This document shows, in pieces, positions 18,688 through 38,516 of a stretch of DNA of 64,000 nt. The stretch lies in the NCBI GenBank assembly GCA_044229975.1, contig JBGARZ010000023.1, positions 64,001 to 128,000 on the forward strand, read 5' to 3'. This DNA comes from Polyangiales bacterium (lineage in GTDB: Bacteria; Myxococcota_A; Polyangia; Polyangiales; Ga0077539). The notes beneath the pieces are model-generated. The model was not told the DNA's origin. It saw only the letters and a list, made by a program, of their open reading frames with translations, and made no database searches. Within the stretch, counting starts at the first letter, position 1. Every line of letters begins with the position of its first letter. Both the position numbers and the translations under genes were made by a program.

Positions 18688-18870
18688 TCAGCCCGCGCGG
18701 TGGCGGCCCTGGCAGCAGGGCGAGCCGGGATGGCAGCAGGGCGAGCCGGGGTAGCAGCAGTCGCCGGCGCCCCGGGCGGTGCGAACGGCGGTGACCGTCG
18801 CCCCGAGGCCCGTGGCGAGGGAGAGGGCCCCGAGGATCATCAGGGTCCGGGGGGAGAGCAGCTTCATCAT
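18688..18870 (-). CDS. Small secreted Cys-rich peptide with CCxPGSP repeats
   Basis: RBS GGAGG, signal-like N-terminus, DCCYPGSPCCHPGSPCCQG encoded by 21-nt repeats. First gene of the ECF operon. Confidence 0.75.
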   Translation of the reverse strand: MMKLLSPRTLMILGALSLATGLGATVTAVRTARGAGDCCYPGSPCCHPGSPCCQGRHRAG

Positions 18871-18894: not shown

Positions 18895-18921
18895 CTAGCC
18901 GTTCGGGCGGCGGCCGTGACC
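18895..18921 (-). promoter_or_regulatory. ECF-type promoter GGTCAC-N17-CTAG (copy 1)
   Basis: Minus-strand GGTCAC 18921-16 and CTAG 18898-95, upstream of the peptide-sigma operon. Confidence 0.7.
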
Positions 18922-18961
18922 GACAAAGTGTCGCGCGGGCCGTTTCGGGTGTCGCGGTCGC

Positions 18962-19507
18962 CTACGTCGCCGGGGCGCAGGTGCAGTCGGCGCACCCGTC
19001 GTCCGCGCAGGACCCGCAGCAGGCCTGCACCCGCGCGCGCAGCGCCTCGCGCGCCCGGAAGACCCGCACGGCGGCGTTGTTCGCGGTGATGCCCTCGGCC
19101 TCGGCGAAGTCCTTCACGCTCTGCCCGGCAACGGTCACCTGCCGGAGCGCCGCCGCGTACTCGGGCTTCATCGCGTCCGCCAGCCGCCCCACGCACGCGC
19201 AGGTGGTCGGCGCGAGGGCCGCCACCGGCGGCGCCTCCGGCTCGTCCAGCTCCGCGGCCAGGGCGTCGAGCGCGCGGCCGTGGCTGGCGTCCCGGCGCCG
19301 GCGGTCGATCACCGCGTTGCGCAGGATCCGGTAGAACCAGGCGCGCGACGACTCGTCCTGCCGGAGCGAGGCGCCGTGGGTCATGCTGCGGGCGTAGGCG
19401 TCCTGGAGGATGTCCTCGGCCGCCGCGCGGTCGCCGAGCCGGCGCTCCAGGAAGGCGAGGAAGCTCGAACGCGCGGCGAGCAGCGACTCGGTGACGTGGG
19501 CGTCCAT
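18962..19507 (-). CDS. corE: CorE-like metal-responsive ECF sigma factor with Cys-rich C-terminal domain
   Basis: AEDILQDAY, WFYRILRNAVIDRRR, CAC between regions 2 and 4, C-terminus CCGSCADDGCADCTC. Lies downstream of a Cu-ATPase. Confidence 0.8.
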   Translation of the reverse strand: MDAHVTESLLAARSSFLAFLERRLGDRAAAEDILQDAYARSMTHGASLRQDESSRAWFYRILRNAVIDRRRRDASHGRALDALAAELDEPEAPPVAALAPTTCACVGRLADAMKPEYAAALRQVTVAGQSVKDFAEAEGITANNAAVRVFRAREALRARVQACCGSCADDGCADCTCAPAT

Positions 19508-19551
19508 GGGCCGGAGTCTAACGGCGTCGGCGGCGGAGGGCACGGAGGGGA

Positions 19552-21846
19552 TCACGGCGACCACCGCCGCAGCCGCAGCGAGTTGAGGAGCACCGAGACG
19601 CTCGACAGCGACATCGCCGCGCTCGCGAAGACCGGCGAGAGCGACCAGCCCGTCACGGGCTCGAGCAGCCCCGCCGCGAGGGGGATGCCGACGAGGTTGT
19701 AGACGAAGGCCCAGAAGAGGTTCTGCCGGATCGTGCGCAGCGTGGCCCGCGCGAGCGCGAGCGCCGTCGGCACCGCCCCGACGCCGCCCCGCAGGATCGT
19801 CACGTCCGCGGCGGCCGCTGCGACGTCCGCGCCGCCGCCCATCGCCACGCCGAGGTCGGCCGCGGCTAGCGCGGGCGCGTCGTTCACGCCGTCGCCCACC
19901 ATCGCCACGGTGCGCCCCGCCGCGCGCAGCCGCGCCACCAGCGCGGCCTTCTCCTCGGGGCGCACTTCCGCATGCACCTCGCTCACGCCCGCGGCGCGCG
20001 CGACCGTCAGCGCCGTCGCCCACCGGTCGCCCGTCGCCATCGCCACGGACACGCCCATCGCCGTCAACGCGGCCACGGTCGCGGCGGCCTCGGGGCGCAC
20101 CGTGTCGGCCACCGTCACGAGGCCCGCCAGGGCGCCGTCGATGGCCACGAACACGGGCGTCTCGCCCCGGTCCGCGGCCGCGGCCGCCGCGGGCTCCAGC
20201 GCGTCGGCGGCGACCCCCTGCGACGCCAGCCAGCGGGTGGTGCCGACGCACACGAGCGACGTGCCGACGCGGGCCTGCACGCCGCCGCCCGGGGTCGCCG
20301 TGAACTCCGTCGCGGCGACGGCGGTCAGGCCCCGCGCGGCGGCGCCCGCGACGATGGCGCGCGCCACGGGGTGTTCGCTCCCCGCCTCCGCGGCGGCCGC
20401 CAGCGCGAGCAGCTCGTCCTCGCCCCTCCCGCCCGCGGGGACCACCCGCGCGAGGGCCATCCGGCCCAGGGTGAGGGTGCCCGTCTTGTCGAAGAGCACC
20501 TGGTCGATCTTCGAGGCGCGCTCCAGGGCCTCGCCGCCCTTCACCAGCAGCCCGAGGGCGGCCGCGCGGCTCGTGCCCACGGCGACGGCCGCGGGCGTGG
20601 CGAGCCCGAGCGCGCAGGGGCAGGCGATCACCAGCACCGCGACGAAGTGCTCGACCGCGGCGGCGAGTCCGTCGGGCCCGCGCGGGAGCACCATCCACGC
20701 GGCGAAGGTGAGTACGGCGAGCGCGACTACCGCCGGCACGAACACCGCGCTCACCCGGTCGGCGAGGCGGGCGATGGGCGCGCGCGTGCCCTGGGCCTCG
20801 GAGACGGCGTCCACGATGCGCGCAACGGCCGACTCGGCGCCCCGGCGCGTCACCTCGATCACGAGGCTGCCGCCCTCGACCAGCGTCCCGCCCTGCACGG
20901 GGTCGCCGGGCCCGCGCTCCACGGGCACGCTCTCGCCGGTGAGCATCGACTCGTCCACGGCGGCCTGACCCTCCACGACCGTCCCGTCGGTCGGGACGCG
21001 CTGCCCGGGGCGCACGCGCACGCGGTCGCCCGGGAGCAGCGACCCCACCGTCACCTCGAGCTCAACCCCGCCCCGCAGGCGCGTCGCGCTCGGCGGCTGG
21101 AGGGCCACGAGGCCGCGCACCGCGTCCCCCAGGCGCCGGCGCGCGCGCCGCTCCAGGGCCTTGCCCAGCAGCATGAACGCGACGATCGCGCCGGCCGCCT
21201 CGAAGTACACCGGGACGTGACCGTGCTCGCCGTGCGGAAGCAGTCGCGGCACGAAGGTCACCGCCGCCGACCAGCCCCAGGCGGTGAGGGCGCCGAGCGC
21301 GACGAGGACGTTCATGTCGGCGCTCCGGTGGCGCAGCGCCGCGGCCGCGAGGCGCAGGAAGCGGCGCCCGGGGCCGAAGACCACCGCCGTCGCCAGCGCG
21401 AGCTGGAGGTAGCGCCCGGCGGCGCCCGCGGTCCCCGGGATCGCGCCGTGCGACATCCCGACGACCAGGAGCGGCACGGCCAGCGCCGCAGCCACGATCA
21501 GGTCGCGCCGGTCGCGGCGGGCGTCGGACTCTTCGGCGGCGTCGATGCGCGCGAGGCGCGACGCTGCGTCGGGCGGGGCCTCGCCCGCCGCGGGCACGTC
21601 GGGGACCTCGTAGCCCGCCCCGCGGATCGCCTCGGCGAGGGCCTCCGGGGCCGTCGCGGCGGGGTCGTAGTCGATCGTCGCATGCTGGGTGGCGAGGTTC
21701 ACCCGCGCGTCGAGCACGCCGGGCGCGCGCCCGAGCACGCGCTCGATGCGGCCGACGCAGGCCGCGCAGGTCATGCCGAGCACCGCGAGCTGCACGCGCG
21801 TCGGGTCGTCGGGAGGGGACAGGGGGTTCGCGAGCGAGGATGTCAT
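19552..21846 (-). CDS. copA: Cu(I)-translocating P1B-type ATPase
   Basis: GMTCAAC HMA domain, [27 protein letters not shown] and MSLSS. Confidence 0.93.
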   Translation of the reverse strand: MTSSLANPLSPPDDPTRVQLAVLGMTCAACVGRIERVLGRAPGVLDARVNLATQHATIDYDPAATAPEALAEAIRGAGYEVPDVPAAGEAPPDAASRLARIDAAEESDARRDRRDLIVAAALAVPLLVVGMSHGAIPGTAGAAGRYLQLALATAVVFGPGRRFLRLAAAALRHRSADMNVLVALGALTAWGWSAAVTFVPRLLPHGEHGHVPVYFEAAGAIVAFMLLGKALERRARRRLGDAVRGLVALQPPSATRLRGGVELEVTVGSLLPGDRVRVRPGQRVPTDGTVVEGQAAVDESMLTGESVPVERGPGDPVQGGTLVEGGSLVIEVTRRGAESAVARIVDAVSEAQGTRAPIARLADRVSAVFVPAVVALAVLTFAAWMVLPRGPDGLAAAVEHFVAVLVIACPCALGLATPAAVAVGTSRAAALGLLVKGGEALERASKIDQVLFDKTGTLTLGRMALARVVPAGGRGEDELLALAAAAEAGSEHPVARAIVAGAAARGLTAVAATEFTATPGGGVQARVGTSLVCVGTTRWLASQGVAADALEPAAAAAADRGETPVFVAIDGALAGLVTVADTVRPEAAATVAALTAMGVSVAMATGDRWATALTVARAAGVSEVHAEVRPEEKAALVARLRAAGRTVAMVGDGVNDAPALAAADLGVAMGGGADVAAAAADVTILRGGVGAVPTALALARATLRTIRQNLFWAFVYNLVGIPLAAGLLEPVTGWSLSPVFASAAMSLSSVSVLLNSLRLRRWSP

Positions 21847-21874
21847 GGGGGTTCGGCTCCGGTTCGATCGGGCC

Positions 21875-21900
21875 GACGCAGCCGGGCGCGGCGGATTACA
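21875..21900 (-). promoter_or_regulatory. ECF-type promoter TGTAA-N17-CGTC (copy 2)
   Basis: Minus-strand TGTAA 21900-896 and CGTC 21878-75, upstream of copA-corE. Confidence 0.7.
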
Positions 21901-22005
21901 TCCCTCGTTCGCAGAGGATCGGCGGGTCGTTCTGGATCCCGGCACGCCGGCGCCCCTCAGTGCATGGGAGACCGCGGGGTCGTGAGCTGTCCGATGGACA
22001 GTCCT

Positions 22006-25000
22006 TCATGCCGGCGCGGCTCCTTCCGTCTCGGGCGGTCCGTCGATGCCCCCGCGACGAATCTGTCCCCTGCGCCAGACCGCGTAGGCGGCGGGCAGCA
22101 CGAGAAGCGTGAGCGCCAGACACGACACCAGGCCGCCCACGACCGGAGCGGCGATGCGCGCGGAGACGTCGGCGCCCGGGCCCGCCTCCCAGAGCAGGGG
22201 CAAGAGGCCCAGCACCGTGCTGGCCACCGACATCACGATGGGCCGTACCCGCGACGAAGCCCCCTCCACGACGGCTTCATCCACGTCGCTCACGTCCAGC
22301 GAAGCCTTGTCCTTCTGCCGCAACGAGACCGCCTGATCGAGGAACTCGACCATGAGGATGCCGGTCTCGGAGGCGGTTCCGATGACGGCGATGAGGCCCA
22401 CCCACACGGCGGTCGAGACGTTGTAGTGCCGCAGGTGGAGCAGCCACACGCTGCCGATCAATGCGAAGGGCAGGCTGGTGAGGACCAGGCCCGTCTGGGC
22501 CCAACCCCGCATGGCTCGACGAAGAAGGAAGACGACCAGCAGGAGGGTAAGCGGCACCACCCAGGCCATGCGCGCCTGCATCTCCGCCATGAACTCGTAC
22601 TGACCCGTCCATTGCAGCCGGTAGCCCGGAGGCAGTGACAACTGGCGCGCGACGACGGCCCTCGCGTCGCTCACCCAGCCGCCGAGGTCGCGCTGCGAGG
22701 CGTCGATGTCGGCGAAGACGTAGCCGACCAGGACGCCGTTCTCGTCCTTGATCATCGGCGGGCCGGTCACGACCCGCACGTCCGCGATCGCCCCGAGCGG
22801 AACCGTCGCCCCGGACGGTCGCCAGCGATCGCTCGGATCAGGCGCGGATGCGGCCGGTGCGCCCATCGCCGGTGCCGGGCTCGCGCCACCCGGTGCCCCG
22901 ACCCGCATCCCGGTGCGACCTGCGCCGCCTCCCATGCCGCTGCCACCCATGGCCCCCTGGGCGCTGTTGCCCGCCGGGGATGAGCCGGCGCCCGCGCCGC
23001 CGGCCTCCGCCTCGCCCACCGGCTCCGAGCTGGCCACCGGGATGAGGATGCGGCGCAGCGAGTCGGGATCGGCCCGGTAGTCCGCGGCGTAGCGCAGGTT
23101 GATCGAGAACCTCGACCGGCCTGCGATCACGGTCGAGACCGCCATGCCCCCGACGGCCGCTTCGACGACGTCGTGGACGTCCCGCACGCTCAGTCCGTAG
23201 CGGGCGATGGCCTCCCGGTCGGGGACGACGTCGATGTACTCGCGGCCCGTCTGGCGCTCCGCGAAGGTGCTGCGCGTTCCCGGGACGCCGCGCAGCATCC
23301 CTTCGAGGGCGATGGAGAGGCGCTCGATCTCGGCGAGGTCGGGCCCGAAGACCTTGATGCCAACGGGTGTCCGCACGCCGGTCGTCAGCATGTCGATGCG
23401 CGTCCGAATCGGCGGCGCGATCGCCATCTGATAGCCGGGCATCCGCAGCGCCGCGTCCAGGTCGCGGCTGAGCTCTTCGAGCGTGCGCGGACGCTGCTCA
23501 GGCCAGATCCATCGGAGGGGAACCCGCAGCCACTCGGGCCCTCCGCTGTACCACCGCGCGGTATACCGCCGCGGCCACGCGCTCGTGGGGCGCAGGACCA
23601 CGACGCTCTCGATCATGTCGAGCTGCGCCGGGTCGGTGGCCGTCTCCGCCCGCCCGGCCTTGCCATGCACCGACGACACCTCCCGGAAGGATCGGATGAT
23701 CCGATCCTGGGCCGTGAGCGCCCGGCGCGCCTCCTCGATGGAGATGCCCGGAAAGGTCGTGGGCATGACCAGGAGAGAGCCCTCGTCGAGGGGCGGCATG
23801 AACTCCGAGCCGAGGCGTAGGGCCACGGGCACCGTCGCCGCGAGCAACGCGGCCGCGCCGAGGAGGACGAACCATCGCGCCCGGACGGCGAGGCGCACCA
23901 CCGGCCGATACATCCGGGTCAGGACGCGGCTGACGGGGTTCTCGTCGTCCCGGCGAAACCTGCCCCGCATCACGAGCAACATGAGGGGCGGCACCAGCGT
24001 CACGGAGAGCAGCGCCGCCGCGAAGGTGGCGAAGGTGTGCGTGAGGACGAGCGGGCGGAACAGCCGCCCGGCCTGGCCGGTCAGGCTGAGGAGCGGGACG
24101 AAGCTCACGGTGACCAGGAGGAGGGAGAAGAACGTGGGGCGTCCGACCTCCTTGAGCGCGTCGAGGATGACGCGTCGCCGGTCCGCGCCCGCGGCCGCGA
24201 GCGAGAGCCGGCGCGCGCCGTTCTCGACGAAGGTCGTGGAGGCGTCCTCAAGCTCCCCCACCGCGATCGCGATCCCGGCGAGGGACATGATGTTGATCGA
24301 CATGCCGACGTGGAACGTCGGGATGAAGGTGAGCAGGACCGCGAGCGGAATGACGACGACGGCGACGAAGGCCGACCGGGCGCTGAACAGGAAGAAGAGG
24401 CAGATGAGCGCGACGATGACGCCCTCCTGGATGAGCGTATTTCTCAGCGTCGCCACGGAGCCGCGAATCAGGTGCGAGCGGTCGTAGGTCGGCACGAGGC
24501 GGACGCCCTCGGGCAGGCTCAGCCGCGCGATCTCGGCCTTGATGGCGTCGTTGACCTGGAGGGCGTTGGAGCCGATGCGCATGACGACGATGCCGCCGAC
24601 GGCCTCGCCGCGGCCGTCGAAGTCCGCGGCGCCCCGGCGGATCTCCGGGCCGAACTGGACGCGCGCGACGTCGCGCAGCCGGATGGGGTTGCCGCCCGCG
24701 CCCACGCTCACGACGCTCGCTTCGAGGTCGGCGAGGGTCCGCACGTACCCGCGGCCGCGCAGGACGTACTCGCGCCCGGCGACCTCCAGCACGCGCGCCC
24801 CCACCTCGGAGTTGGCGTCCCGCGCGGCGCGGGTCACGTCGGCCAGTGAGAGTCCGTAGGCGGCGAGGCGGTTCGGATCGAGGACGATCTGGTACTGGCG
24901 CTCGAAGCCGCCGACCGTCGCGACCTCGGCGACGCCGGAGACCGCCTGGAGCGTCGGGCGGATCGTGAAGTCCTGGAGCTCACGGAGCTGCGCGAGGTCG

Positions 25001-25452
25001 CGTCGCCCGGAGGTGTCCTCGATCACGTATTGGAACACCCAGCCGACGCCGGTCGCGTCGGGTCCGAGGATGGGTGCGACGTCCGGGGGCAGGAGCCGCT
25101 GCACGCGCCCGAGCTGCTCGAGGACCCGGGTGCGCGCCCAGTAGATGTCGGTGTCGTCCTCGAAGATCACGTAGATGAAGCTCATCCCGAACATCGAGTA
25201 GCCGCGCACCGTCCGGGCGTGGGGCGTGCTCTGGAGCGCGCGCACGAGGGGGTAGGTGATCTGGTCCTCGACGAGGTCGGGGCTCCGGCCCATCCAGTCG
25301 GTGAACACGATGACCTGCGGATCGGAGAGGTCTGGGATCGCGTCGAGGGGCGTCCGCCTCATGGCGGTGACGGCCCACACGACGAGGAGGGCCATCACGC
25401 CGAAGACGACCCACGGGCGCTTCGCGGACAGCTCGATGATGCGCTCGACCAC
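22006..25452 (-). CDS. cusA: CusA-type Cu/Ag RND efflux permease
   Basis: PLDAIPDLSDPQVI, VEDQITYPL, LGPDATGVGW, GSEFMPPLDEG, DMIES, RIDMLTTG. Confidence 0.92.
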   Translation of the reverse strand: MVERIIELSAKRPWVVFGVMALLVVWAVTAMRRTPLDAIPDLSDPQVIVFTDWMGRSPDLVEDQITYPLVRALQSTPHARTVRGYSMFGMSFIYVIFEDDTDIYWARTRVLEQLGRVQRLLPPDVAPILGPDATGVGWVFQYVIEDTSGRRDLAQLRELQDFTIRPTLQAVSGVAEVATVGGFERQYQIVLDPNRLAAYGLSLADVTRAARDANSEVGARVLEVAGREYVLRGRGYVRTLADLEASVVSVGAGGNPIRLRDVARVQFGPEIRRGAADFDGRGEAVGGIVVMRIGSNALQVNDAIKAEIARLSLPEGVRLVPTYDRSHLIRGSVATLRNTLIQEGVIVALICLFFLFSARSAFVAVVVIPLAVLLTFIPTFHVGMSINIMSLAGIAIAVGELEDASTTFVENGARRLSLAAAGADRRRVILDALKEVGRPTFFSLLLVTVSFVPLLSLTGQAGRLFRPLVLTHTFATFAAALLSVTLVPPLMLLVMRGRFRRDDENPVSRVLTRMYRPVVRLAVRARWFVLLGAAALLAATVPVALRLGSEFMPPLDEGSLLVMPTTFPGISIEEARRALTAQDRIIRSFREVSSVHGKAGRAETATDPAQLDMIESVVVLRPTSAWPRRYTARWYSGGPEWLRVPLRWIWPEQRPRTLEELSRDLDAALRMPGYQMAIAPPIRTRIDMLTTGVRTPVGIKVFGPDLAEIERLSIALEGMLRGVPGTRSTFAERQTGREYIDVVPDREAIARYGLSVRDVHDVVEAAVGGMAVSTVIAGRSRFSINLRYAADYRADPDSLRRILIPVASSEPVGEAEAGGAGAGSSPAGNSAQGAMGGSGMGGGAGRTGMRVGAPGGASPAPAMGAPAASAPDPSDRWRPSGATVPLGAIADVRVVTGPPMIKDENGVLVGYVFADIDASQRDLGGWVSDARAVVARQLSLPPGYRLQWTGQYEFMAEMQARMAWVVPLTLLLVVFLLRRAMRGWAQTGLVLTSLPFALIGSVWLLHLRHYNVSTAVWVGLIAVIGTASETGILMVEFLDQAVSLRQKDKASLDVSDVDEAVVEGASSRVRPIVMSVASTVLGLLPLLWEAGPGADVSARIAAPVVGGLVSCLALTLLVLPAAYAVWRRGQIRRGGIDGPPETEGAAPA

Positions 25453-25463
25453 GGCGGCGGCTC

Positions 25464-26795
25464 CTAGTGGCCCGCGTGAGCCGAGCCCGGCGGTGGGCTC
25501 GGAGCGGGCTCGGGACGGGCGCCGCGATCGCTCGGTGTGGCGCCGGCCGCCGGCGGCGTCTGTCCGCCGTGGGCGTGACCCGTGCCGCCCCCCGAGGCGC
25601 GCAGACGGCTCTCCGAGTCGATCAGGAACACCCCCGAAGCAACGATCGACTCCCCTTCGCTCAGCCCCTCGCGCACCTCCACGCGGTCGTCGAGCCGGGT
25701 CCCCAGCGTGACGGCTCGGGGCACGAAGCGCCCGTCACTCCCGACGACGAAGACGTGCTGGGTCTCGCCGGTGTCCACGACGGCGTCCCGCGGGACCGTC
25801 AGCGCCCCGTGAGCGCTCACCTGGAAGTTGGCTTCACCGTAGAGGCCGGGGCGCAGGGAGCCGTCGTCGTTCGGGACCACGAAGCGCGCGCGCAAGGTCC
25901 GCGTGCGTTCGGTGAGGGTGGGGTAGAGGAAGTCGATTCGCGCCTCGAAGGGTGCCCGGCCCGAGGCCGCGAACTCGAGCCGCGCCGGCGTGTCCCGCTG
26001 AATCGCGGGGATGTCGCCTTCGGGGACCTCGGCCAGCACCCAGACGCGGGAGAGGTCCGCGATCGTGAGCAGCTCCGTCGAGGGGTCCACCGCGGTCCCG
26101 ACGGCGATCCCGCGGTGGAGCACCACGCCCGTGCGGGGAGCCACCACGGTGACGGTGCGCAGGGGGCGGCCCGTGCTCTCGACCTGGGCGAGCTCCGCCG
26201 CGGTCATCCCGAGCACCGCGAGGCGGCTGCGCGTGGCCGCGAGGAGGCCCTGCGTAGCCGCCGCAGTGGTCGGGTGGGCGAGGTTCTGGCGCAGCGCGAT
26301 GAGCTCGTTCTGCGAGGCCAGCAGCTCCTGCGAGAAGATGGCGGCGAGCGGTGCGCCGCGCGTGACGCGCTGCCCGGTGGTGTTGACGTAGAGCCGCTCG
26401 ATCCACCCCGCCACGCGGGTGTGAACGTGCGAGACCCGCGACTCGTCGAGCGCCACCGTCGCGACGGCGCGCACGGGCCGACCGATGTCCTCCCTCGCGA
26501 CGCGGGCGACGCGCACGCCGATCGCGTCGAGCTGCCCCCGGGGGACCGCCACCGGCACGCGCCCCGGTACGGTGTGGGCCGCGTGCGGATCGACGGCCTC
26601 GTTCCCGTCGAGGGCGAGTGGCGCGGCGGTGCGCCCTCCGGGCGGATTCGCCGGCGCCATCTCGTGGTGCAGCGAGAAGGGCCAGGCCCGGCGGAGGTGC
26701 TGCGTGATGAGCGACCCCACCATGAGGACGACCACGGCGAGCGTGGCCACCGAGAGCGTGCGCCATCCCCGCGCCACCAGCGGGTGAGCGATCAT
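25464..26795 (-). CDS. cusB: CusB-like RND periplasmic adaptor
   Basis: GWIERLYVN, FSQELLASQNE, IADLSRVWV, FLIDSES, His-containing tail. Confidence 0.88.
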   Translation of the reverse strand: MIAHPLVARGWRTLSVATLAVVVLMVGSLITQHLRRAWPFSLHHEMAPANPPGGRTAAPLALDGNEAVDPHAAHTVPGRVPVAVPRGQLDAIGVRVARVAREDIGRPVRAVATVALDESRVSHVHTRVAGWIERLYVNTTGQRVTRGAPLAAIFSQELLASQNELIALRQNLAHPTTAAATQGLLAATRSRLAVLGMTAAELAQVESTGRPLRTVTVVAPRTGVVLHRGIAVGTAVDPSTELLTIADLSRVWVLAEVPEGDIPAIQRDTPARLEFAASGRAPFEARIDFLYPTLTERTRTLRARFVVPNDDGSLRPGLYGEANFQVSAHGALTVPRDAVVDTGETQHVFVVGSDGRFVPRAVTLGTRLDDRVEVREGLSEGESIVASGVFLIDSESRLRASGGGTGHAHGGQTPPAAGATPSDRGARPEPAPSPPPGSAHAGH

Positions 26796-28081: not shown

Positions 28082-28310
28082 GGGAGATCCTCCCTCGAGC
28101 GTTCGATGGGGATCACTCCCCCGCGTTGCGCCGATGACGTCCCCTTGAGCAACCCACGCGCCACGTCCATGGGCGCGGAGGAATCGGTGGAACTTCGCCT
28201 GCCCGGAACTCGATCTCGGTGTCCGGCGCACAAGCTGCGCTCGGGCGAACGGATTGCACCATCGACGACCGCCGGACGTCCGCTCGGGCGCGGGGCGGAG
28301 ATTCGCGCGG

Positions 28311-28336
28311 TGTAATGCCGATGGCACTGGTCCGTC
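28311..28336 (+). promoter_or_regulatory. ECF-type promoter TGTAA-N17-CGTC (copy 3)
   Basis: TGTAA 28311-15 and CGTC 28333-36, upstream of the YHS-CopA gene. Confidence 0.7.
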
Positions 28337-28431
28337 TGCGGCTCCAGAGACGGAAGCCGGTGACAGATCGCAGCGACGGGGCACGCCGCCTGCTCTGCGG
28401 ACTGCCGGGCGACCGCCCCGCGAGGCACTCC

Positions 28432-30810
<2,379 letters not shown>

Positions 30811-30822
30811 GGTCGATGCGGC

Positions 30823-30848
30823 TGTAAGGCACCGAGGGGGCCTGCGTC
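30823..30848 (+). promoter_or_regulatory. ECF-type promoter TGTAA-N17-CGTC (copy 4)
   Basis: TGTAA 30823-27 and CGTC 30845-48, upstream of copZ. Confidence 0.7.
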
Positions 30849-30896
30849 TGCCTTGATGCGAGCCAAAGCAACGCGGCCCGCAGGAGCGACGAAACC

Positions 30897-31121
30897 ATGA
30901 ACTCCAACGAGACCCTGCTCGACGTCCGCGGCATGAACTGCGGCTCGTGCGTCCGCCACATTTCCCAGGCACTCGACGCGCTCGACGGCGTCGAGGAGGT
31001 CCACCCCTCGCTGCCCGACAAGACCGTCCGCGTCCGGCACGACCCGGCGCGGGTGAGCGCCGAGCAGCTCGCCGGCGCGCTGACCGCGAAGGGCTACCCC
31101 GCCGCCGCGCGCGCCGCGTGA
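30897..31121 (+). CDS. copZ: HMA-domain copper chaperone
   Basis: GMNCGSCV, C-terminal GY, 74 aa. Confidence 0.88.
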   Translation: MNSNETLLDVRGMNCGSCVRHISQALDALDGVEEVHPSLPDKTVRVRHDPARVSAEQLAGALTAKGYPAAARAA

Positions 31122-31135
31122 ATCGACCCCGGCCG

Positions 31136-31207
31136 GGTCACAGGTCGGCCGCGCAGCCGTAGAGCCTGAGCCCGCTTCGGCTGTAATCCCCACCCACCAC
31201 GCGCGTC
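31136..31207 (+). promoter_or_regulatory. Two tandem ECF-type promoters: GGTCAC-N17-GTAG and TGTAA-N17-CGTC
   Basis: GGTCAC 31136-41 with GTAG 31159-62, and TGTAA 31182-86 with CGTC 31204-07. Confidence 0.65.
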
Positions 31208-31223
31208 TGCCGCGACGAAGCCC

Positions 31224-31484
31224 ATGAACCTCCTGATCCCACGCGTTCTCATCCTGGTCAGTGCGACCGCCCTCCCGCTCGGGTGCGGGGGCCGCGAGGT
31301 CCCTGTGCGCTTCGCCGAGCAGTCGGCGCTCTCCTCGGGCGCGCGCGAGGCGCCGGTTGGCGACCCCACGGTGGCCCTCACGGGCGACCCGCCCCTCCCG
31401 GGCGAGCCCACCGGGGCCTGGACCGGCCTCGCCGCGGACGCGGGTGCTCCCCCGACCGGAGGAGGCCACGTCCATGCGCACTGA
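31224..31484 (+). CDS. Small lipoprotein with His tail
   Basis: Lipobox PLGC, C-terminus GGGHVHAH. Overlaps the TolC start. Confidence 0.65.
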   Translation: MNLLIPRVLILVSATALPLGCGGREVPVRFAEQSALSSGAREAPVGDPTVALTGDPPLPGEPTGAWTGLAADAGAPPTGGGHVHAH

Positions 31485-32892
31485 GCGCCTCCTGCCGGCC
31501 GCGCTAGCGCTGCTGCTGCCGCTCACCGGATGCGCGACGACGTCGTTCTCGTCCGACCTGCGGCGCGTCGAGCAGCTCTCCGGCGCGTCCATCCCCCTAC
31601 GCGTCGCGGACGGCCCCCCCGAGGATCACGACCCGGCCGTCACGCGGGAGGTCCTCGCCCGCCCGCTCACGGCCGACGCCGCGGTGGGGATCGCGTTACG
31701 CAACAACCGCCACCTGCGCGCGTCGCTGCGGGACCTCGGCGTGGCGCGCGGCTGGCTCGCCCAGGCCGGCACGCTCCCCAACCCGGCGGTCGAGTTCGAC
31801 GTGCGCTACCAGACCGACCGCTCGCAGCCCCTGCAGGGCGACGTGCGCCTGGAGTTCGGGCTGACGCGGGCGATCCTCACGACGCAGCGGGCGGGCCTCG
31901 CCCGGGCGGAGCTGGAGACGGCGCAGGCGCGCGTCGCGGGGACGGTGCTGGAGACGGGCTACGCGGTGCGCGCGGCCTTCTACGCGGTGCAGGCCTCCGA
32001 GGAGCGGCTCGCGACCGCCCAGCAGGCGCTGGACGCCTTCGCGGCCGCGCGCGACGCCGCCCGCGCGCTCCACGCGGCGGGCAACCTCCGGGCCCTCGAC
32101 TTCTCGGTGCAGGAGGCGGCCTACGAAACCGCGCGCGTCACGGTGGCGGAGATCGAGCTGGAGCGCTTCGACCGCCGCGAGCGTCTGCAGCGCCTGCTCG
32201 GGCTCCACGGCGACGCCACCGAGTGGACCCTCGCGGAGGGCTTACCCCCCGCGCCCGAGGCCCTCTCGCTGGAGGCGATGACCGAGACGCGCGCCCTCGA
32301 GGCCAGCCTCGACCTCGCGGCCCAGCGCGCCAACCTCCAGGCCCTCGCCCGGCGCGTCGGCCTCAGCCGGGCCGAGGGGTGGCTGCCCGACATCACGGTG
32401 GACGCGCACGCCGAACAGGACGGCAACTCCGTGGAGGTCGGCGGCGGGGCGCGCGTCACGCTCCCGATCTTCGACCAGCGGCGGGGCGCCACAGCCGCCT
32501 ATGGGGCGCAGTTCGACGCCGCGCTCGAGCGCTACTACGCGAGCGCCGTGGACCTGCGCTCGGCCCTGCGCGAGACCCGCAACCGCCTGCGCTCCGCGCA
32601 CGCCCGCGCGCGGCAGTACGACGCCGTGATCGTGCCGGCGCGCGAGCGCGTGCTGCGCGAGACGCTGCTCCAGTACAACGCGATGCAGGTCTCGGTGTTC
32701 CAGCTGCTCCAGGCCCGGCGCGAGCTCCTGGACGCCACGCTCCGGCGCGCCGAGGTCCGCCGAGAGTTCTGGAGCGCCACCGCGGGCACCACCACCCTCT
32801 TCGCGGGGCGCCAGGTGGGCGCGTCCGACGGCACCGAATCCATGTCCGCCGCGTCGATGGACGCGTCGGGCGCATCCGCAGGAGGTCACTGA
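31474..32892 (+). CDS. TolC family outer membrane protein of the copper-oxidase operon
   Basis: Lipobox LTGC, LPNP, TLPIFD, LLQYNAMQVSVFQLL. Confidence 0.88.
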   Translation: MRTERLLPAALALLLPLTGCATTSFSSDLRRVEQLSGASIPLRVADGPPEDHDPAVTREVLARPLTADAAVGIALRNNRHLRASLRDLGVARGWLAQAGTLPNPAVEFDVRYQTDRSQPLQGDVRLEFGLTRAILTTQRAGLARAELETAQARVAGTVLETGYAVRAAFYAVQASEERLATAQQALDAFAAARDAARALHAAGNLRALDFSVQEAAYETARVTVAEIELERFDRRERLQRLLGLHGDATEWTLAEGLPPAPEALSLEAMTETRALEASLDLAAQRANLQALARRVGLSRAEGWLPDITVDAHAEQDGNSVEVGGGARVTLPIFDQRRGATAAYGAQFDAALERYYASAVDLRSALRETRNRLRSAHARARQYDAVIVPARERVLRETLLQYNAMQVSVFQLLQARRELLDATLRRAEVRREFWSATAGTTTLFAGRQVGASDGTESMSAASMDASGASAGGH

Positions 32893-32896
32893 AGCC

Positions 32897-34270
32897 ATGG
32901 ACCGACGATCCTTTCTCCATGCCAGCAGCGCGGCGACGGCGCTCGGGTTGATGACCCGCGCGGAGCGGGCCGAGGCGCAGACCCACGAGGGCCACGGCGC
33001 GCCCGGGGGCCCGACGCAGGGACAGACGGCGGGGCAGACGCCACCCCCGCCAGCGACCTCCGCCGCGATCGTGCGCCGCTTCCCTGCCGGGCAGCCTGGG
33101 GTGACGGTGCCCAACGGGGGCACGCTGCCGCTGCGCGTGGTCGATGGGGTGAAGGTCGGCCACCTCGTGGTCGAGTCCTTCCCCAACGAGTTCAGCCCCG
33201 ACCTCACCGCGGAGGTGTGGGGCTACAACGGCACGACGCCGGGGCCGGTGATCGAGCTCGTCGAGGGCGACCGGCTGCGGATGTACGTCACCAACCGGCT
33301 GCCCGAGCCGACCACGGTGCATTGGCACGGCATCGTCCTGCCCAACGGGATGGACGGCGTCAGCGGCCTGAACCAGCGCCCGATCCCGCCGGGCGAGACG
33401 TGGGTGTACGAGTTCACGCTCCGCCACCCCGGCACGTTCATGTACCACTCGCACTTCGACGAGATGACGCAGATCGCGCTCGGCGCAGTGGGCATGATCG
33501 TCGTGCATCCGCGCCAGGCGAGGGGCCCGCGGGTCGATCGCGACTTCGTGCTCATGGCGCACGAGTGGAAGATCGAGGCGGGCGCCCGGCGGCCCGACCC
33601 CAACGCCATGAACGACTTCAACGTCCTCACCTTCAACGGCAAGGCGTTCCCGAGCACCGCGCCGCTGCTGGTGGGCAAGGGCGAGCGGGTGCGCATCCGC
33701 CTGGGCAACCTCGGCCCCATGGACCACCACCCGATCCACATCCACGGCCTGTGGTTCCACGTCACGGCGACGGACGGCGGCTACGTGCCCGCGAGCGCGC
33801 AGCGGCCCGAGACGACGGTGCTGGTGCCCGTCGGGGCCACGCGGGTGATCGAGTTCGTGCCGCCCGAGTCGGGCGACTGGGCGATGCACTGCCACATGAC
33901 CCACCACGTTATGATGCAGATGGCCCACGGCCTGCCGAACATGGTCGGCATGGACCCGCGCGTGCTGGAGCGCCGCATGAGCCGCTCGATGCCGGAGTAC
34001 ATGACCATGGGCCACCGGGGCATGGGCGGCATGGGTGAGATGCGGATGGAGATCCCGCCCAACAGCGCGCCGATGCGCGGGGGCCCCGGGCCCCACGCGT
34101 ACATCGACATGGGCGGGATGTTCACCGTGCTCAAGGTGCGCGACGACGTGGCGACGGCCGACCCCGCGGGGTGGTACCAGGCGCCCGCCGGGACGGTGCC
34201 CACGGTGGCCGACGAGGCGCGGCTGCGCGCCGATGGGATCGACGTGGCGCGGACCTGGCGGCGCGGCTGA
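32897..34270 (+). CDS. Tat-exported multicopper oxidase with Met-rich C-terminus (CuoB-like)
   Basis: DRRSFL, HWHG, YHSH, HPIHIHG, HCHMTHH. Confidence 0.92.
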   Translation: MDRRSFLHASSAATALGLMTRAERAEAQTHEGHGAPGGPTQGQTAGQTPPPPATSAAIVRRFPAGQPGVTVPNGGTLPLRVVDGVKVGHLVVESFPNEFSPDLTAEVWGYNGTTPGPVIELVEGDRLRMYVTNRLPEPTTVHWHGIVLPNGMDGVSGLNQRPIPPGETWVYEFTLRHPGTFMYHSHFDEMTQIALGAVGMIVVHPRQARGPRVDRDFVLMAHEWKIEAGARRPDPNAMNDFNVLTFNGKAFPSTAPLLVGKGERVRIRLGNLGPMDHHPIHIHGLWFHVTATDGGYVPASAQRPETTVLVPVGATRVIEFVPPESGDWAMHCHMTHHVMMQMAHGLPNMVGMDPRVLERRMSRSMPEYMTMGHRGMGGMGEMRMEIPPNSAPMRGGPGPHAYIDMGGMFTVLKVRDDVATADPAGWYQAPAGTVPTVADEARLRADGIDVARTWRRG

Positions 34271-34343
34271 GCGGGGCGGCGGGCCGGTGAAGAGCTGCAG
34301 GCCCTGACGGCGCCGCGTCAGGGCCGCGCTGGGAGGGGATCCG

Positions 34344-34916
34344 TCAGGGCAGGACGCGCACGACGCCGGCCATCCCGACGTGCCCGTGGGTGTTGCAATG
34401 GAACGGGTAGAAGCCGGCGCCCGCGAACGTCACCGTGTAGGTGTCCCCGGCACGCTGCGCCTCGATGGGGCTGGGGCTAGTGGCGCCCGCGCTCGACCCG
34501 TGCGGGACGCCGGGGTTCAACGGGTGGGTGGTGAGGCTCATGGCGAAGGTCACCGATTGGCCCGCGCGGATGGTGAGGCAGCGCGGGGTGTAGCCCGTGG
34601 TGCCGCGCGGCACCACGGTGCGCTCGGCGGCGTCGGCGGAGCGGTCCACGTAGGCCGAGGCCGCGCAGTCGTTGAGCAGGGGCACCATGGCGGGTGCGTC
34701 CGCCGCCGTACCGGCGTCGGTCCCGGCGTCCTGCTCGGCCGGTGCGACGTCGGCGACGGGCGGTTGGTCGGTCGCGGGGCCGACGTCCGTCGTCCCGACG
34801 TCGGCCGCATCGTGGCCGTCGTGGGCGGACGCGTCGCCGGTCGCGTCGTGGGCCATGTCACCGCAGCCGACAAGCAAAGCAAGCAGTGGGAGAACGATGG
34901 TCAGACGGGCGTGCAT
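34344..34916 (-). CDS. Plastocyanin/azurin-type cupredoxin lipoprotein
   Basis: Lipobox LVGC, THPL, YPFHCNTHGHVGMAGVV (type-1 Cu C-H-M). Confidence 0.85.
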   Translation of the reverse strand: MHARLTIVLPLLALLVGCGDMAHDATGDASAHDGHDAADVGTTDVGPATDQPPVADVAPAEQDAGTDAGTAADAPAMVPLLNDCAASAYVDRSADAAERTVVPRGTTGYTPRCLTIRAGQSVTFAMSLTTHPLNPGVPHGSSAGATSPSPIEAQRAGDTYTVTFAGAGFYPFHCNTHGHVGMAGVVRVLP

Positions 34917-34951
34917 CGGTGGGGTCCTTCCGGGTCACAGAGGGGCGTGGC

Positions 34952-36382
34952 TCAGGGCTCCACGCGCACGGTGGCCATCATCCCGTGCTCGATATGCTCG
35001 AGGATGTGGCAGTGGTACATCCAGTGGCCGGGGCGCTCGTCGGGGCGGAACGCGATGCGCACGCGCTCCTTGCCCCGGAGCTGGATCGTGTCCTCCCACG
35101 ACCGCTCGCCCTCGGGGGCGCCGTCGCGCGAGACCACCTGGAAGAAGAACCCGTGCAGGTGGAAGGGGTGCTCCATCTCGCTCGCGTTGACGAGGTCCCA
35201 GACCTCGGTGACGCCGACGCGCGCGACGACGTCGGGCACGTCGGGGTAGGACGCGTCGTTGATGGTGAAGACGACCCGCTCCGCGTCGCGGTCGATGTGC
35301 TCGTTGAAGGTCACGGTGCGCGGCGCGACGCCCGCCGTGGCCAGCGGCTCGACCCGCGGGCTGGGCGCGGGCGTGGCGAGCGCCGGCAGCGCCGGGTCGG
35401 GCGCGTAGCGGAGCCGTAGGATGTCCGACGCCTCGGTGAGGCCGGCGCCGTGGCCGCGGGCGTAGGGGAGGTTCTGGAGGACGGCCGTCGCACCCGGGTC
35501 GCCGGTACCGTCCACCAGGACGTCGAGGCGGTCCCCAGGCACCAGGAAGAGCTCGTCGGAGGCGCGCGGCGTCTCGACGGGACCACCGTCGGTGCCCACC
35601 ACGGTGAAGCGGTGTCCCGGCAGGGCGAGGCGGTAGAAGCGTGCGCTGCCCGCGTTGACCACGCGCCACCGCTGCCGCTGGCCCGCACGGATGGGGAGTT
35701 CCGCGCCCGCGCGGCCGTTGACCAGGGCGACGGCCCCCTCGCGGCCGGTGTGCTGCTCGACGAGGTCCCCGGTCGGCGCGATCTGGCCGTCGGCGCCGAG
35801 CAGCAGGTCGTCGAGCACCAGCACGCCCTCGGCGTCGGCGCGCGGCTCGCGGTCGCCCCGCACCACGATCGCGCCGTAGAGGCCGCGCTCCATCTGCACG
35901 CTCTCAGTGACGTGCGGGTGGTACCAGAAGGTCCCCGCGTCGGGCACGGTGAAGCGGTACTCGAAGGAGGCTCCCGGGGCGACAGGCGGCTGCGAATGGG
36001 GGCTTCCGTCCATGGAAGCGGGTACCCGCACGCCGTGCCAGTGGATGGTCGTGGGCTGGTCGAGGCGGTTGGTGAAATGCACGACCACCGTGTCGCCCGC
36101 GCGGGCCTCGATCGTCGGCCCCGGCACCGACCCGTTGTAGGTCATCGCCCGGACGCGACGACCCGGCGCGTACTCCCACTCGCCGAAGCGCGCCTCAAGG
36201 TCGATCTCGACGACGCGGGGATCGGGGTTGCGATCGACGGCGGGGGCGACCCGGAGCACCGAGGCCCAAGGGTCCGGGCCGGTGCGCGGGGTGGCCGACG
36301 TCGGGGGCGCGTCGCCGCAACCGCCGACGAGGAGCGCGGCAGAGAGGCTACAGAGGAGGTGTCGGTTGGACGGCATGATCAC
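34952..36382 (-). CDS. Three-domain multicopper oxidase lipoprotein
   Basis: Lipobox VGGC, HWHG, WYHPH, HPFHLHG, HCHILEHIEHGMM. Confidence 0.93.
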   Translation of the reverse strand: MIMPSNRHLLCSLSAALLVGGCGDAPPTSATPRTGPDPWASVLRVAPAVDRNPDPRVVEIDLEARFGEWEYAPGRRVRAMTYNGSVPGPTIEARAGDTVVVHFTNRLDQPTTIHWHGVRVPASMDGSPHSQPPVAPGASFEYRFTVPDAGTFWYHPHVTESVQMERGLYGAIVVRGDREPRADAEGVLVLDDLLLGADGQIAPTGDLVEQHTGREGAVALVNGRAGAELPIRAGQRQRWRVVNAGSARFYRLALPGHRFTVVGTDGGPVETPRASDELFLVPGDRLDVLVDGTGDPGATAVLQNLPYARGHGAGLTEASDILRLRYAPDPALPALATPAPSPRVEPLATAGVAPRTVTFNEHIDRDAERVVFTINDASYPDVPDVVARVGVTEVWDLVNASEMEHPFHLHGFFFQVVSRDGAPEGERSWEDTIQLRGKERVRIAFRPDERPGHWMYHCHILEHIEHGMMATVRVEP

Positions 36383-36430
36383 CTACGGGGGCTGAGGAGC
36401 GGGGCACGCGAGCAGGCACCGACCGGCCTT

Positions 36431-36457
36431 CTAGTCGCCCGAACCGAAGGTGTGACC
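36431..36457 (-). promoter_or_regulatory. ECF-type promoter GGTCAC-N17-CTAG (copy 2)
   Basis: Minus-strand GGTCAC 36457-52 and CTAG 36434-31, upstream of the MCO-plastocyanin operon. Confidence 0.7.
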
Positions 36458-36465
36458 GAGGAACC

Positions 36466-37800
36466 TCACCGGGCGTTGCCGTTCCGGGCGTCGCCGCCGG
36501 TGACGGGCCATGCCGACGGGGCCGCGCCGGCGGACTCGGTCGCCACGACGAGCAGGCGGTCGTCGTCGGTGTGCAGGGCGAGGTCGCCGTTGGGCGAGAG
36601 CACGGGCGCCGAGGCGTTGGCGCCCTCCGGGATCGCGAGCGTCCACCGCTGGCGGCCGTCCTCCCCGACGGCGTAGAGCGCCCGGCCCACCGCGAGGTAG
36701 ATCACGCTCGCGCGCCCGACGGCGTGCGTGGCGAAACGCTGGTAGTCGGTGCGGGTGGCGCTGGCACCGAAGCCCCAGGCGCGCGAGCCGTCGCGGCGGA
36801 CGGCCACCAGCTCGCCGCTCGCGCCGCCGCCGCCACGGTGGACGTTCAGGTAGACGTAGACCGTGCCGTCGGCGCCGATCACGGGCGCGCCCATGAGGAG
36901 ATCGACCTGGCCCCGCGAGGAGCGGGCGAGGTTTACCCGCCAGATCAGCCGGCCCGTCCGCAGTTCCCGGGCGACGAGCACATAGGAACTCAGGCCGAAG
37001 AACGCGATGTAGATCCGGTCGCCGTCGATCGCGGGCGGGAGCGCGTGGCGCAGCGTCCCATCGAGGATCTCGTAGGGTTCGGACCAGAGCCTGCGGCCGT
37101 TGGTGAGGTCGAGCGCGGTGTCGAGGCAGCCGACGGTCGTGCCCGCAACGGCGCACTCGTTCACGTTGGACCAGTCCGGCGCGTCGAGGGTCTGGCGGCC
37201 CGCGAGCTCGAAGCCCGCGAGGCGCCCCACGGTCGTCCTCGCGCCCTGGGTTACCAGCACCGGGCCGCGCCCCGGCGGCAGTCCGACGAAGCGCACCACG
37301 GCATCGACCGTCGGGTACGGCGGCCGGGCCTCGCCGTTCCGCCCGAAGCGCCACAGACCGCGCGCGGCGGTGTCGCCGTACATGCTCGTGAGCAGCACGT
37401 CGTCGCCGGTGGAGAGGCGGACCTCGCCCCCAAGCACGCGTCCGCCCGCGCCGGGGCGCACCGCCGGCGACCGCCAGCGCTCCCGGCCGCAGGCATCGAG
37501 GGCGACCACGCCGCGCCCGCGGTCGGAGGTCTCGTACGGCGCGTAGATCGTCCCTTCGGCGTCGATGGCGACGTGCCCGGTGACGCCGACGACGGCGAAA
37601 CGAACGCTCCCGACGGGCGTGTCCCGACCGCAGCGCGGGGGCTGGAGTGGGACGTCCTCGGGGCCGGCGTCGTGTCGATCGAGGGCGTCGCAGGGCACGT
37701 CCACCGCCGCGTCGAACAGCTCATCGAGGCCGGTGCGCGCGCCGCACGCCGAGGCCACACACGCGAGGAACAGGTGGCGTTGGAAGGAGGGGCCGCGCAC
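36466..37800 (-). CDS. PQQ-like beta-propeller lipoprotein
   Basis: ACGARTGLD lipoprotein start, and repeats GRERW, GRRLW, GRLIW, PVIGADGTVYV, GRQRW. Start uncertain. Confidence 0.7.
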   Translation of the reverse strand: MRGPSFQRHLFLACVASACGARTGLDELFDAAVDVPCDALDRHDAGPEDVPLQPPRCGRDTPVGSVRFAVVGVTGHVAIDAEGTIYAPYETSDRGRGVVALDACGRERWRSPAVRPGAGGRVLGGEVRLSTGDDVLLTSMYGDTAARGLWRFGRNGEARPPYPTVDAVVRFVGLPPGRGPVLVTQGARTTVGRLAGFELAGRQTLDAPDWSNVNECAVAGTTVGCLDTALDLTNGRRLWSEPYEILDGTLRHALPPAIDGDRIYIAFFGLSSYVLVARELRTGRLIWRVNLARSSRGQVDLLMGAPVIGADGTVYVYLNVHRGGGGASGELVAVRRDGSRAWGFGASATRTDYQRFATHAVGRASVIYLAVGRALYAVGEDGRQRWTLAIPEGANASAPVLSPNGDLALHTDDDRLLVVATESAGAAPSAWPVTGGDARNGNAR

Positions 37801-37992
37801 CCGCTGAGGGTAAGGGCGATCCCGTCGCCCGAGCGTCGATCTTCGCTTGCGACGATTGTATCGGCGCGCTGAACAATGCCGGCGAGGAGCGTCCGCCCTC
37901 CGTGTTTCCACGCCTTGCTTCCGCGCCCACGCGCTCACGCGCATGGGATGGCCGATCGAGCGGATCGCAGGGGCGGTTTGTTGGAGCCTCCG

Positions 37993-38019
37993 GGTCACGG
38001 ACGGGATGGACACGGCTAG
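37993..38019 (+). promoter_or_regulatory. ECF-type promoter GGTCAC-N17-CTAG (copy 3)
   Basis: GGTCAC 37993-98 and CTAG 38016-19, upstream of the MNIO precursor. Confidence 0.7.
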
Positions 38020-38087: not shown

Positions 38088-38513
38088 ATGAACAACGAAA
38101 CCCGCGCGAAGCTTCTGGCGATGGTGTCTGCCGCTCTGGGCGGCGCGGCCCTTGAGGGCTGCGCGAGTAATCCGCCAGCGATGGCGCAGCCCCCGACGAG
38201 CGCGAGCGCTCAGTCGGCCACAGGGCAGGCCGGCAGCTGCAGTGCTGCGATGGCCCAGAGCGGGAACTGCGGCGCCAACATGGGCCACGCCCCGGGGGCA
38301 GCTCCGGCGGCCCCTCAGGGGGCGGCGACTGGGCAGGCGATGAGCTGCGGACACGACGGGAACTGCGGCGCGCACATGGCCGCGCCGACCGCGCCGGCCG
38401 CTCCGGGGACGACCGCGGCGCAGCCGACTGCACCGCCCGCCCCGGCCCCCACGACTCCCGCCGCGGCACCTCCTCCCGCGGCCCCCGCTCGCCCTCACGT
38501 CCACGCCCACTGA
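38088..38513 (+). CDS. Putative MNIO RiPP precursor (lipoprotein-type, Cys repeats)
   Basis: Signal with LEGC, two ATGQAxSC...GNCGA(N/H)M units, Pro/Ala tail, HVHAH. Ends 3 nt before the DUF692 gene. Confidence 0.75.
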   Translation: MNNETRAKLLAMVSAALGGAALEGCASNPPAMAQPPTSASAQSATGQAGSCSAAMAQSGNCGANMGHAPGAAPAAPQGAATGQAMSCGHDGNCGAHMAAPTAPAAPGTTAAQPTAPPAPAPTTPAAAPPPAAPARPHVHAH

Positions 38514-38516
38514 GCG

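Follow-up and report, generated by a model that had tools for sequence, protein, structure and literature searches.

Among the metal-sensing systems built on extracytoplasmic function (ECF) sigma factors, CnrYXH has a membrane-anchored periplasmic sensor, CnrX. CnrYXH/ECF291 is a three-gene cassette that has a small periplasmic component and drives a resistance-nodulation-division (RND) efflux pump, and ECF291 contexts include a multicopper oxidase (MCO) (PMC7826278). In Caulobacter, SigF and NrsF (ECF16) control the copper-induced bufferin operons buf1 and buf2 (PMC11626156, PMC3511200); the pair responds to chromate and cadmium via periplasmic Cys residues, and NrsF has six helices and two Cys reported to be periplasmic (PMC3511200). 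In Myxococcus xanthus, CorE controls a multicopper oxidase, P1B-ATPases, and a heavy-metal-associated (HMA) protein, as well as a promoter ahead of an outer membrane efflux gene (PMC3107203). Here, we describe a different arrangement in a Polyangiales bacterium (GenBank assembly GCA_044229975.1, contig JBGARZ010000023.1, positions 64,001 to 128,000; this whole stretch of 64,000 nucleotides is the window), in which a conserved cassette of a Cys-rich peptide, an ECF sigma factor with a short region 4, and a six-helix membrane protein probably heads a copper-envelope regulon through the promoter motif GGTCAC-N17-CTAG (motif A; shared core, GTCAC-N17-CTAG). The cassette and the motif A sites of the window are as follows.

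17567 to 18148, minus strand: six-helix membrane protein, putative anti-sigma factor, with a Cys loop (C96, C97, C107, C108, C114) and C157
18145 to 18675, minus strand: ECF sigma factor whose region 4 is short (7-residue deletion; first helix of the helix-turn-helix [HTH] unmodelled)
18688 to 18870, minus strand: 60-residue CC peptide, with a basic N-terminus, a hydrophobic stretch of about 20 residues, CCxPGxxCCxPGxxCC, and a short His/Arg tail
18895 to 18921, minus strand: P1, predicted autoregulatory motif A promoter, an exact motif upstream of the peptide gene
31136 to 31162, plus strand: P2, degenerate motif A site (GTAG), reading CTAA in some island copies
36431 to 36457, minus strand: P3, predicted motif A promoter, before the operon of the oxidase MCO2 and a plastocyanin-like protein
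37993 to 38019, plus strand: P4, predicted motif A promoter, before the MNIO operon

The arrangement resembles SigF-NrsF in its autoregulated ECF gene, in the six-helix membrane partner at the +1 position, in the conserved Cys residues (predicted to be periplasmic here) close to where helix 4 begins and helix 5 ends, and in a predicted regulon that includes distant copper genes and possibly an MNIO operon. It differs in its promoter (GTAACC-N16-CGAA in Caulobacter [PMC3511200], GGTCAC-N17-CTAG here), in having a five-Cys loop instead of two Cys, and in its −1 CC-CC-CC peptide gene and short region 4. None of the 21 family members of the membrane protein matches PF06532 (NrsF/DUF1109) at an E value of ≤1, and hhalign against 13 myxobacterial NrsF sequences returned probabilities of 0.5% and 1.0%. 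The SigF/NrsF control invoked in a preliminary description of this DNA is thus an analogy only, given the lack of an NrsF match and the different promoter, and any homology to NrsF may be very remote. A separate true NrsF pair, with a full-length sigma, is present on another contig (C34) of the same genome. Like CnrYXH/ECF291, the cassette has three genes, but its components are a putative six-helix Cys-cluster anti-sigma and a 60-residue Cys peptide, and there is no common sequence family. We found no description of motif A or of the cassette in the literature (subscription journals and figure files being outside the search), and the accessible part of the supplement to PMC7826278 contains no GGTCAC, the GTCAC matches seen there being TGTCACA −35 boxes of ECF41, ECF103, and ECF288, which are paired with different −10 boxes.

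The gene order CC peptide-ECF sigma-membrane protein is conserved. The membrane protein is present in 24 of 201 genomes of the order, window genome included, and a scan with the sigma alignment gave 49 loci, with relatives almost all in myxobacteria; these loci are kin and overlap those of the 201-genome survey. Of the 47 loci that could be evaluated (two had too little upstream DNA), 43 have GTCAC-N17-CTAG no farther than 450 bp from the sigma gene, and only one further match occurs across 778 kb of flanking sequence. The remaining four loci comprise one CTAC variant, one spacer shortened by 3 nucleotides (nt) next to frameshifted genes (possibly an assembly error), and two without an exact site, and the CC-CC-CC peptide gene is found in 46 of the 47. 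One cassette copy (L031/L125, on contig C10 of genome G161) combines a 14-nt spacer with frameshifts in both the sigma and the membrane protein genes, possibly through joint decay or long-read assembly error. At one locus (L157), orthologues of MCO2 and plastocyanin lie immediately behind the cassette, and at another (L141, of the cultured Sorangium sp. So ce1128) the cassette is situated within a copper cluster. Metatranscriptome contigs, which record presence only, may include DNA, and come from strains that differ from the window, span the cassette; in two same-year studies their ends fall at 18878, within the predicted transcript by about ten bases, and depth upstream of this position is lower in one of the two, a weak hint that fits the predicted 5′ end of the P1 transcript.

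All four motif A sites reported earlier for the window are present at their coordinates and on their strands, with 24 (P1), 61 (P2), 54 (P3), and 68 (P4) nt between the −10 end and the start codon. Four matches compare with a shuffle mean of 0.14, and 0 of 100 shuffles reached four, a test that taken alone is circular because the pattern was derived from the same window. The expected genome-wide excess was also observed: GGTCAC-N17-CTAG occurs six times in this genome of 10.0 Mb and 71% GC versus zero to four times for each other spacing (15 spacings between 10 and 25). All six matches are promoter-positioned, three of them in the window island and three in a paralogous island on contig C31 that is 73 to 91% identical to it; at the C31 oxidase and MNIO promoters, hexamer and tetramer are retained amid diverged intergenic DNA. 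The GTAG variant, in contrast, shows no genome-wide enrichment (7 matches at N17 versus 2 to 44 at other spacings). P2 reads CTAA in the C31 copy, and its GTAG replaces the C found in all 42 of 42 autoregulatory sites, which were selected with CTA in the pattern. We give even odds that P2 is a functional member of the regulon.

A refined motif A pattern gave 87 sites in 23 cassette genomes (23 autoregulatory, 7 in islands, and 57 others), and 55 of the 57 others were examined in context. Sixteen of these 55, spread over three families and 11 of the 23 genomes, immediately precede a gene or operon of copper type. They precede cupredoxins (genomes G107, G112, and G051), a small lipoprotein with TolC (G107, G051, G189, and G173), CusC/CusCBA-type operons (G038, G107, G145, and G112, the last at a contig end), MCO2-type oxidases (G065, G166, G058, and G112, the last frameshifted), and an orphan MNIO-type precursor (G117); HMBD lipoproteins are also among the gene types preceded by motif A in cassette genomes. 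The window member of the oxidase group is the operon behind P3.

34344 to 36376, minus strand: MCO2 plus plastocyanin-like operon

The control set comprised 49 genomes that lack a match to the membrane protein; its profile gave only two distant second-tier hits in them. Motif A precedes 7 of 20 MCO2 loci in cassette genomes versus 0 of 29 in cassette-lacking ones (one locus dropped per set, the control one for short upstream DNA) and 8 of 28 versus 0 of 26 TolC loci (two cassette-genome loci and one control locus dropped), that is, 0 of 55 MCO2/TolC loci where the cassette is lacking. The Fisher values of 0.0009 (MCO2) and 0.004 (TolC) overstate the contrast, because the genomes are kin. Positives outside the island come from G065, G086, G166, G107, G051, G173, and G189, and from G145 with N18 (by eye), and MCO2 orthologues that are 73 to 81% identical in cassette-lacking genomes have no motif A site. 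As motif A marks copper genes only where the cassette exists, the short-region-4 sigma is likely its reader. As a comparative-genomic pattern, the regulon is real and reaches beyond the window, and on such sequence patterns motif A is very probably the −35/−10 promoter of this sigma. The proposal of a sigma-driven regulon therefore stands insofar as the motif tracks the cassette and marks distant copper genes in cassette genomes only, and it does not stand in the generality claimed for MNIO and ASPIC genes. In three cassette-lacking loci (L232, L233, and L236), GGTCAC is kept before MCO2 without CTAG, and one such upstream region has a GTGACC-N5-GGTCAC inverted repeat that is also seen in L267; the lone GGTCAC may be a relic or the site of another regulator.

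The preliminary description had wired the copper genes to a single sigma. The motif A circuit survives this comparison, and a CorE-like sigma directly upstream, together with a second motif, TGTAAT-N16-CGTC (motif B; four times in the window), had been overlooked.

18962 to 19507, minus strand: CorE-like (ECF44/ECF238-type) sigma, with CAC in the linker and a five-Cys C-terminal tail
12864 to 12889, plus strand: motif B, before a cupredoxin gene (12931 to 13326)
21875 to 21900, minus strand: motif B, before a P1B-ATPase gene (19552 to about 21843) and the CorE-like gene
28311 to 28336, plus strand: motif B, before a second P1B-ATPase gene
30823 to 30848, plus strand: motif B variant TGTAAG-N16-CGTC, before an HMA chaperone gene (30897 to 31121)
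31182 to 31207, plus strand: motif B, in tandem with P2, before the TolC-MCO1 operon
31224 to 34270, plus strand: operon of an 86-residue lipoprotein-like gene, a TolC-type outer membrane protein, and the multicopper oxidase MCO1, exported by twin-arginine translocation

The neighboring sigma has both the linker CxC and the Cys-rich C-terminal domain that define CorE-like sigmas, whose metal specificity is set by single Cys positions (PMC4937300, PMC6851896 for the definition; PMC4937300 for the specificity); its best NCBIfam model is SigZ, below the cut-off. It shares these features with CorE/CorE2 (ECF44, now ECF238), and motif B precedes the gene classes of the CorE regulon (P1B-ATPases, an HMA protein, and an efflux protein with an oxidase). 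Motif B is found equally often at TolC loci with and without the cassette (8 of 28 and 7 of 26). A CorE-like match is present in each of the 12 genomes that carry motif B at TolC (26 of 43 genomes match overall) and in none of five genomes with motif A copper targets (G051, G058, G107, G112, and G173), so that motif A goes with the short sigma and motif B with the CorE-like one. Motif B is therefore likely the promoter of the CorE-like sigma, an assignment made from co-occurrence and gene classes and not from the published CorE promoter, which has AAC in the −35 and a G in the −10 element (PMC3107203, PMC4937300, PMC6851896). At the TolC-MCO1 operon, motif B lies 46 nt downstream of the GTAG site, and both motifs, motif A in degenerate form, occur in all island copies examined; three distant orthologous TolC operons have a perfect motif A and no motif B. 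With motif B adjacent to the GTAG site, the TolC-oxidase operon is probably under dual control. Its GGTCAC site is the poorest member of the motif A set. The 86-residue gene with a His tail (31224 to 31484, plus strand) is unannotated and also heads the operon in distant genomes (L180, L198, and L317).

By sequence and fold, the product of 18145 to 18675 is an ECF sigma factor (group 4). Pfam Sigma70_r2 is matched in 21 of 21 family members, and the best structural and sequence matches are SigW, SigE, and AlgU. Region 4 is 7 residues shorter than in AlgU/SigE, with the gap falling on the LSYEDIA helix; its spacing is 24 residues in most of the 21 members, and RKRxSRAY is invariant in the family. 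In the model (predicted local distance difference test [pLDDT], 85; predicted template modelling score [pTM], 0.54), a helix at 134 to 143 and a helix at 154 to 171 are joined by a ten-residue loop. Pfam Sigma70_r4_2 recognizes only 3 of 21 members at an E value of ≤0.1 (best, 0.015). The 2021 ECF classification required a protein to have both Pfam region 2 and Pfam region 4 and excluded all others (PMC7826278); since region 4 fails this filter, the family was probably missed by the classification, as judged by the Pfam filter rather than by the ECF group models. Two more distant pairs of an ECF sigma and a six-helix membrane protein (L230:656-2015 and L231:1414-2500) also have a short region 4, and a larger class may therefore be hidden.

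The membrane protein matched no Pfam family. One search gave 223 homologues, another gave 93 representatives at an E value of ≤1e−10, and there is a second tier of more distant relatives of about 180 residues. Its model has six long helices (pLDDT, 82), a fold search returned generic helical matches only (best Z, 7.6), and Atlas searches returned unnamed clusters only. Invariant Cys residues lie in the loop and after helix 5, C114 and C157 being conserved in at least 90% of 87 sequences, and the charge distribution suggests that the loop and C157 face the periplasm. From the conserved +1 position and the gene overlap, we infer that this protein is the anti-sigma of the short-region-4 sigma; its N-terminal RRAYExG helix is a candidate contact for the sigma. 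The CC peptide has 599 matches at an E value of ≤0.001, no fitting NCBIfam family, and no Atlas match at 0.9 or more; its six Cys are invariant in 21 of 21 members. In the family, an uncharged run of 16 to 30 residues follows the basic N-terminus, and as no conserved cleavage motif was seen by eye, membrane anchoring is as likely as secretion. In 12 of 21 membrane proteins, the sensor loop likewise begins with the CCxPG unit of the peptide, and the peptide might bind the same metal as that loop.

What the regulon senses and which sigma reads motif A are separate questions. The sigma-promoter pair could be right and the signal general thiol or oxidative stress or a soft metal (Cd, Hg, or Ag) in the envelope, with the CC peptide as the sole universal output and the copper genes as opportunistic add-ons. 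The cassette usually stands alone in unrelated neighborhoods, the autoregulatory site is the only match in four genomes (G175, G118, G127, and G062), and a distant relative sits behind a small Cys-containing membrane gene that we take to be MerC/MerT-like; the response of SigF/NrsF to chromate and cadmium (PMC3511200) points the same way. However, the 16 distant targets are of copper type (oxidases, cupredoxins, CusCBA/TolC, HMBD lipoproteins, and an MNIO-type precursor), and no thioredoxin, Dsb, or Msr was recognized among them, so that we consider such a signal unlikely and, given the promoter-sigma assignment, copper the probable one. An uncounted lipoprotein at L217 may be thioredoxin-like.

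It is quite improbable that the short-region-4 sigma is a bystander or inactive and that motif A is read by the adjoining CorE-like sigma or another one. The M. xanthus CorE regulon does contain similar gene classes (PMC3107203), and in the window the CorE-like gene ends 40 nt from P1. However, such adjacency is confined to the two copies in the window genome (short loci), a CorE-like gene lies within 10 kb in only 3 of 49 loci, the five CorE-negative genomes named above have motif A copper targets, and many CorE-bearing genomes that lack the cassette have no motif A at their MCO2/TolC genes. Within the window genome itself, a third copper cluster, on contig C27, combines a CorE-like paralogue with two copies of motif B and lacks a motif A promoter. 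The CorE-like sigma thus does not appear to be the reader of motif A. That motif A is a transcription factor operator, or that its distant sites are chance, is barely plausible. The core matches in 183 of 201 genomes of the order by chance, which makes an order-wide count uninformative, and GGTCAC without CTAG stands before MCO2 in two or three cassette-lacking genomes, but the motif is bipartite without being a palindrome, keeps its spacer at 17 nt, and lies near the start codon in the proper orientation, and its presence before the sigma gene in 43 of 47 loci compares with 0 of 55 control loci.

Several observations weigh against the regulon as we read it. By the model, the first HTH helix is missing from region 4, and reading of the −35 element could suffer. 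On the profile, the training minimum is 17.4, with P1 scoring 13.9 and P2 below 7. Thirty-nine of the 55 distant sites, located within genes or ahead of unrelated ones, appear to be chance matches, and 9 of 23 cassette genomes have no copper target at all. In cassette genomes, motif A is missing at 13 of 20 MCO2 and 20 of 28 TolC orthologues, near-identical copies of the island make up half of the positive loci, and the compared genomes are kin and mostly incomplete bins. The copper genes of the window lie within 10 kb of the cassette in only 7 of 49 loci, most cassettes being alone.

Weighing these points, we put the probability of the whole model (motif A as promoter, the short-region-4 sigma as its reader, copper sensing by the membrane protein, and a copper-envelope regulon) at about 0.72, judged from comparative sequence data. 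Under this model, the six-helix membrane protein would hold the sigma inactive until periplasmic copper binds its Cys loop; the freed sigma would then transcribe its own cassette and scattered copper-envelope operons via motif A, and the CC peptide would soak up the same metal and damp the response. The CorE-like sigma would read motif B and drive the P1B-ATPases, so that cytoplasmic (CorE-like) and periplasmic (membrane protein) sensing would run in parallel and converge at the TolC-MCO1 operon, and the island of one genus would have recruited a bufferin-like MNIO operon into the regulon. More tentatively, these proteins may represent an undescribed ECF family whose helix-lost region 4 grips GTCAC in a new way, under a three-part periplasmic copper sensor that includes a membrane-anchored peptide as a co-sensor or a feedback decoy mimicking the CCxPG loop. 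On mobile islands, the family would pair with a cytoplasmic CorE-like sensor, for copper logic across two compartments, and would capture operons, including a bufferin-like ribosomally synthesized and posttranslationally modified peptide (RiPP) cluster, by promoter replacement.

The operon behind P4 is the one that would have been recruited.

38088 to 40081, plus strand: MNIO operon, with precursor (38088 to 38513), MNIO (38517 to 39341), and DUF2063 partner (39338 to 40081)

Pfam identifies the MNIO (PF05114) and its partner (PF09836/PF22106), and the bufferin/oxazolin layout of MNIO, DUF2063 partner, and signal-peptide Cys precursor is present. The precursor is of lipoprotein type with the motifs SCS/NCG/SCG/NCG and not EGKCG, and it has no Pfam or NCBIfam match; the MNIO is below both curated cut-offs (288 of 360 and 267 of 310), HvfB/BufB models being closest. 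Compared with Buf_EGKCG-oxazolin clusters, the operon shares a signal-peptide precursor with repeated xxCG and a DUF2063 partner and differs in its lipoprotein-type SCG/NCG precursor and in having no DoxX gene (PMC12452194). Such operons are widespread in the order (an MNIO match in 21 of 23 cassette and 47 of 49 cassette-lacking genomes), and a general sigma-MNIO link was rejected: in a survey in which several loci had short upstream DNA, strict motif A was present at 0 of 30 loci outside cassette genomes and at 4 of 30 within them, the four being near-identical copies from the island. Motif A was not found at same-genus MNIO orthologues that are 80% identical, and at MNIO-type genes it is confined to the island copies of one genus, the C31 copy, and the one orphan precursor. 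Control of the MNIO cluster by motif A, as first proposed, would thus apply to the island copies of one genus and not to other loci or to the core copy of the window genome on contig C19. As the MNIO gene is 99.6% identical in another species of the genus, we infer recent transfer of the island. Upstream of 407709 on C19, the core precursor is preceded by an ECF-like GAAACC ... CGTAG, which resembles promoters of the CarQ/SigF type, and the NrsF pair on C34 is a candidate for its reader; no consistent GAAAC/GTAAC-CGT promoter was seen before 20 non-island MNIO loci. Caulobacter SigF/buf, by analogy, offers the closest working model for MNIO control here.

Other genes of the window were noted in passing. 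The ASPIC gene below had been counted as an operon member, and none of the 49 cassette neighborhoods contains ASPIC.

15831 to 17552, minus strand: gene for an FG-GAP/ASPIC lipoprotein (approximate start), following the cassette at this locus only

Convergent with it, 14758 to 15666 (plus strand) encodes an exported protein in which a Cys-rich repeat, HPLxDxGARFCxxGxCYC...CCPGRSVVC, occurs three or four times; it has no Pfam match and was not found near other cassettes. A pyrroloquinoline quinone (PQQ)-type beta-propeller gene (36466 to 37800, minus strand) lies between P3 and P4 and has no counterpart in the C31 copy. At 40192 to 41403 (minus strand) there is a double CopM/DUF305 gene, and neither of these two genes has motif A or motif B. 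A BlaI/M56 pair heads a heavy-metal efflux operon of TolC, membrane fusion protein, and RND genes (4411 to 11795, minus strand), and a similar BlaI/M56-RND block stands behind the cassette on C31, which suggests a third regulatory input on the island. Outside the copper island are an AAA-ATPase gene followed by one for a 746-residue S8 protease-like protein (44096 to 47464, plus strand) and an ATPase gene with a small partner gene (51786 to 53646, plus strand), sets that we take to resemble a defence island.

If the model is right, a sigma with a fixed −35 box and no HTH scaffold helix would be a structural surprise. The CC peptide represents a six-Cys family that lacks annotation, and it is a candidate chelator of copper. 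The island would exemplify a RiPP metallophore operon rewired to a new regulator, and motifs A and B are two candidate orthogonal metal-responsive promoters. This locus provides a testable promoter, sensor, and regulon for an ECF family that was probably overlooked in the standard classification.

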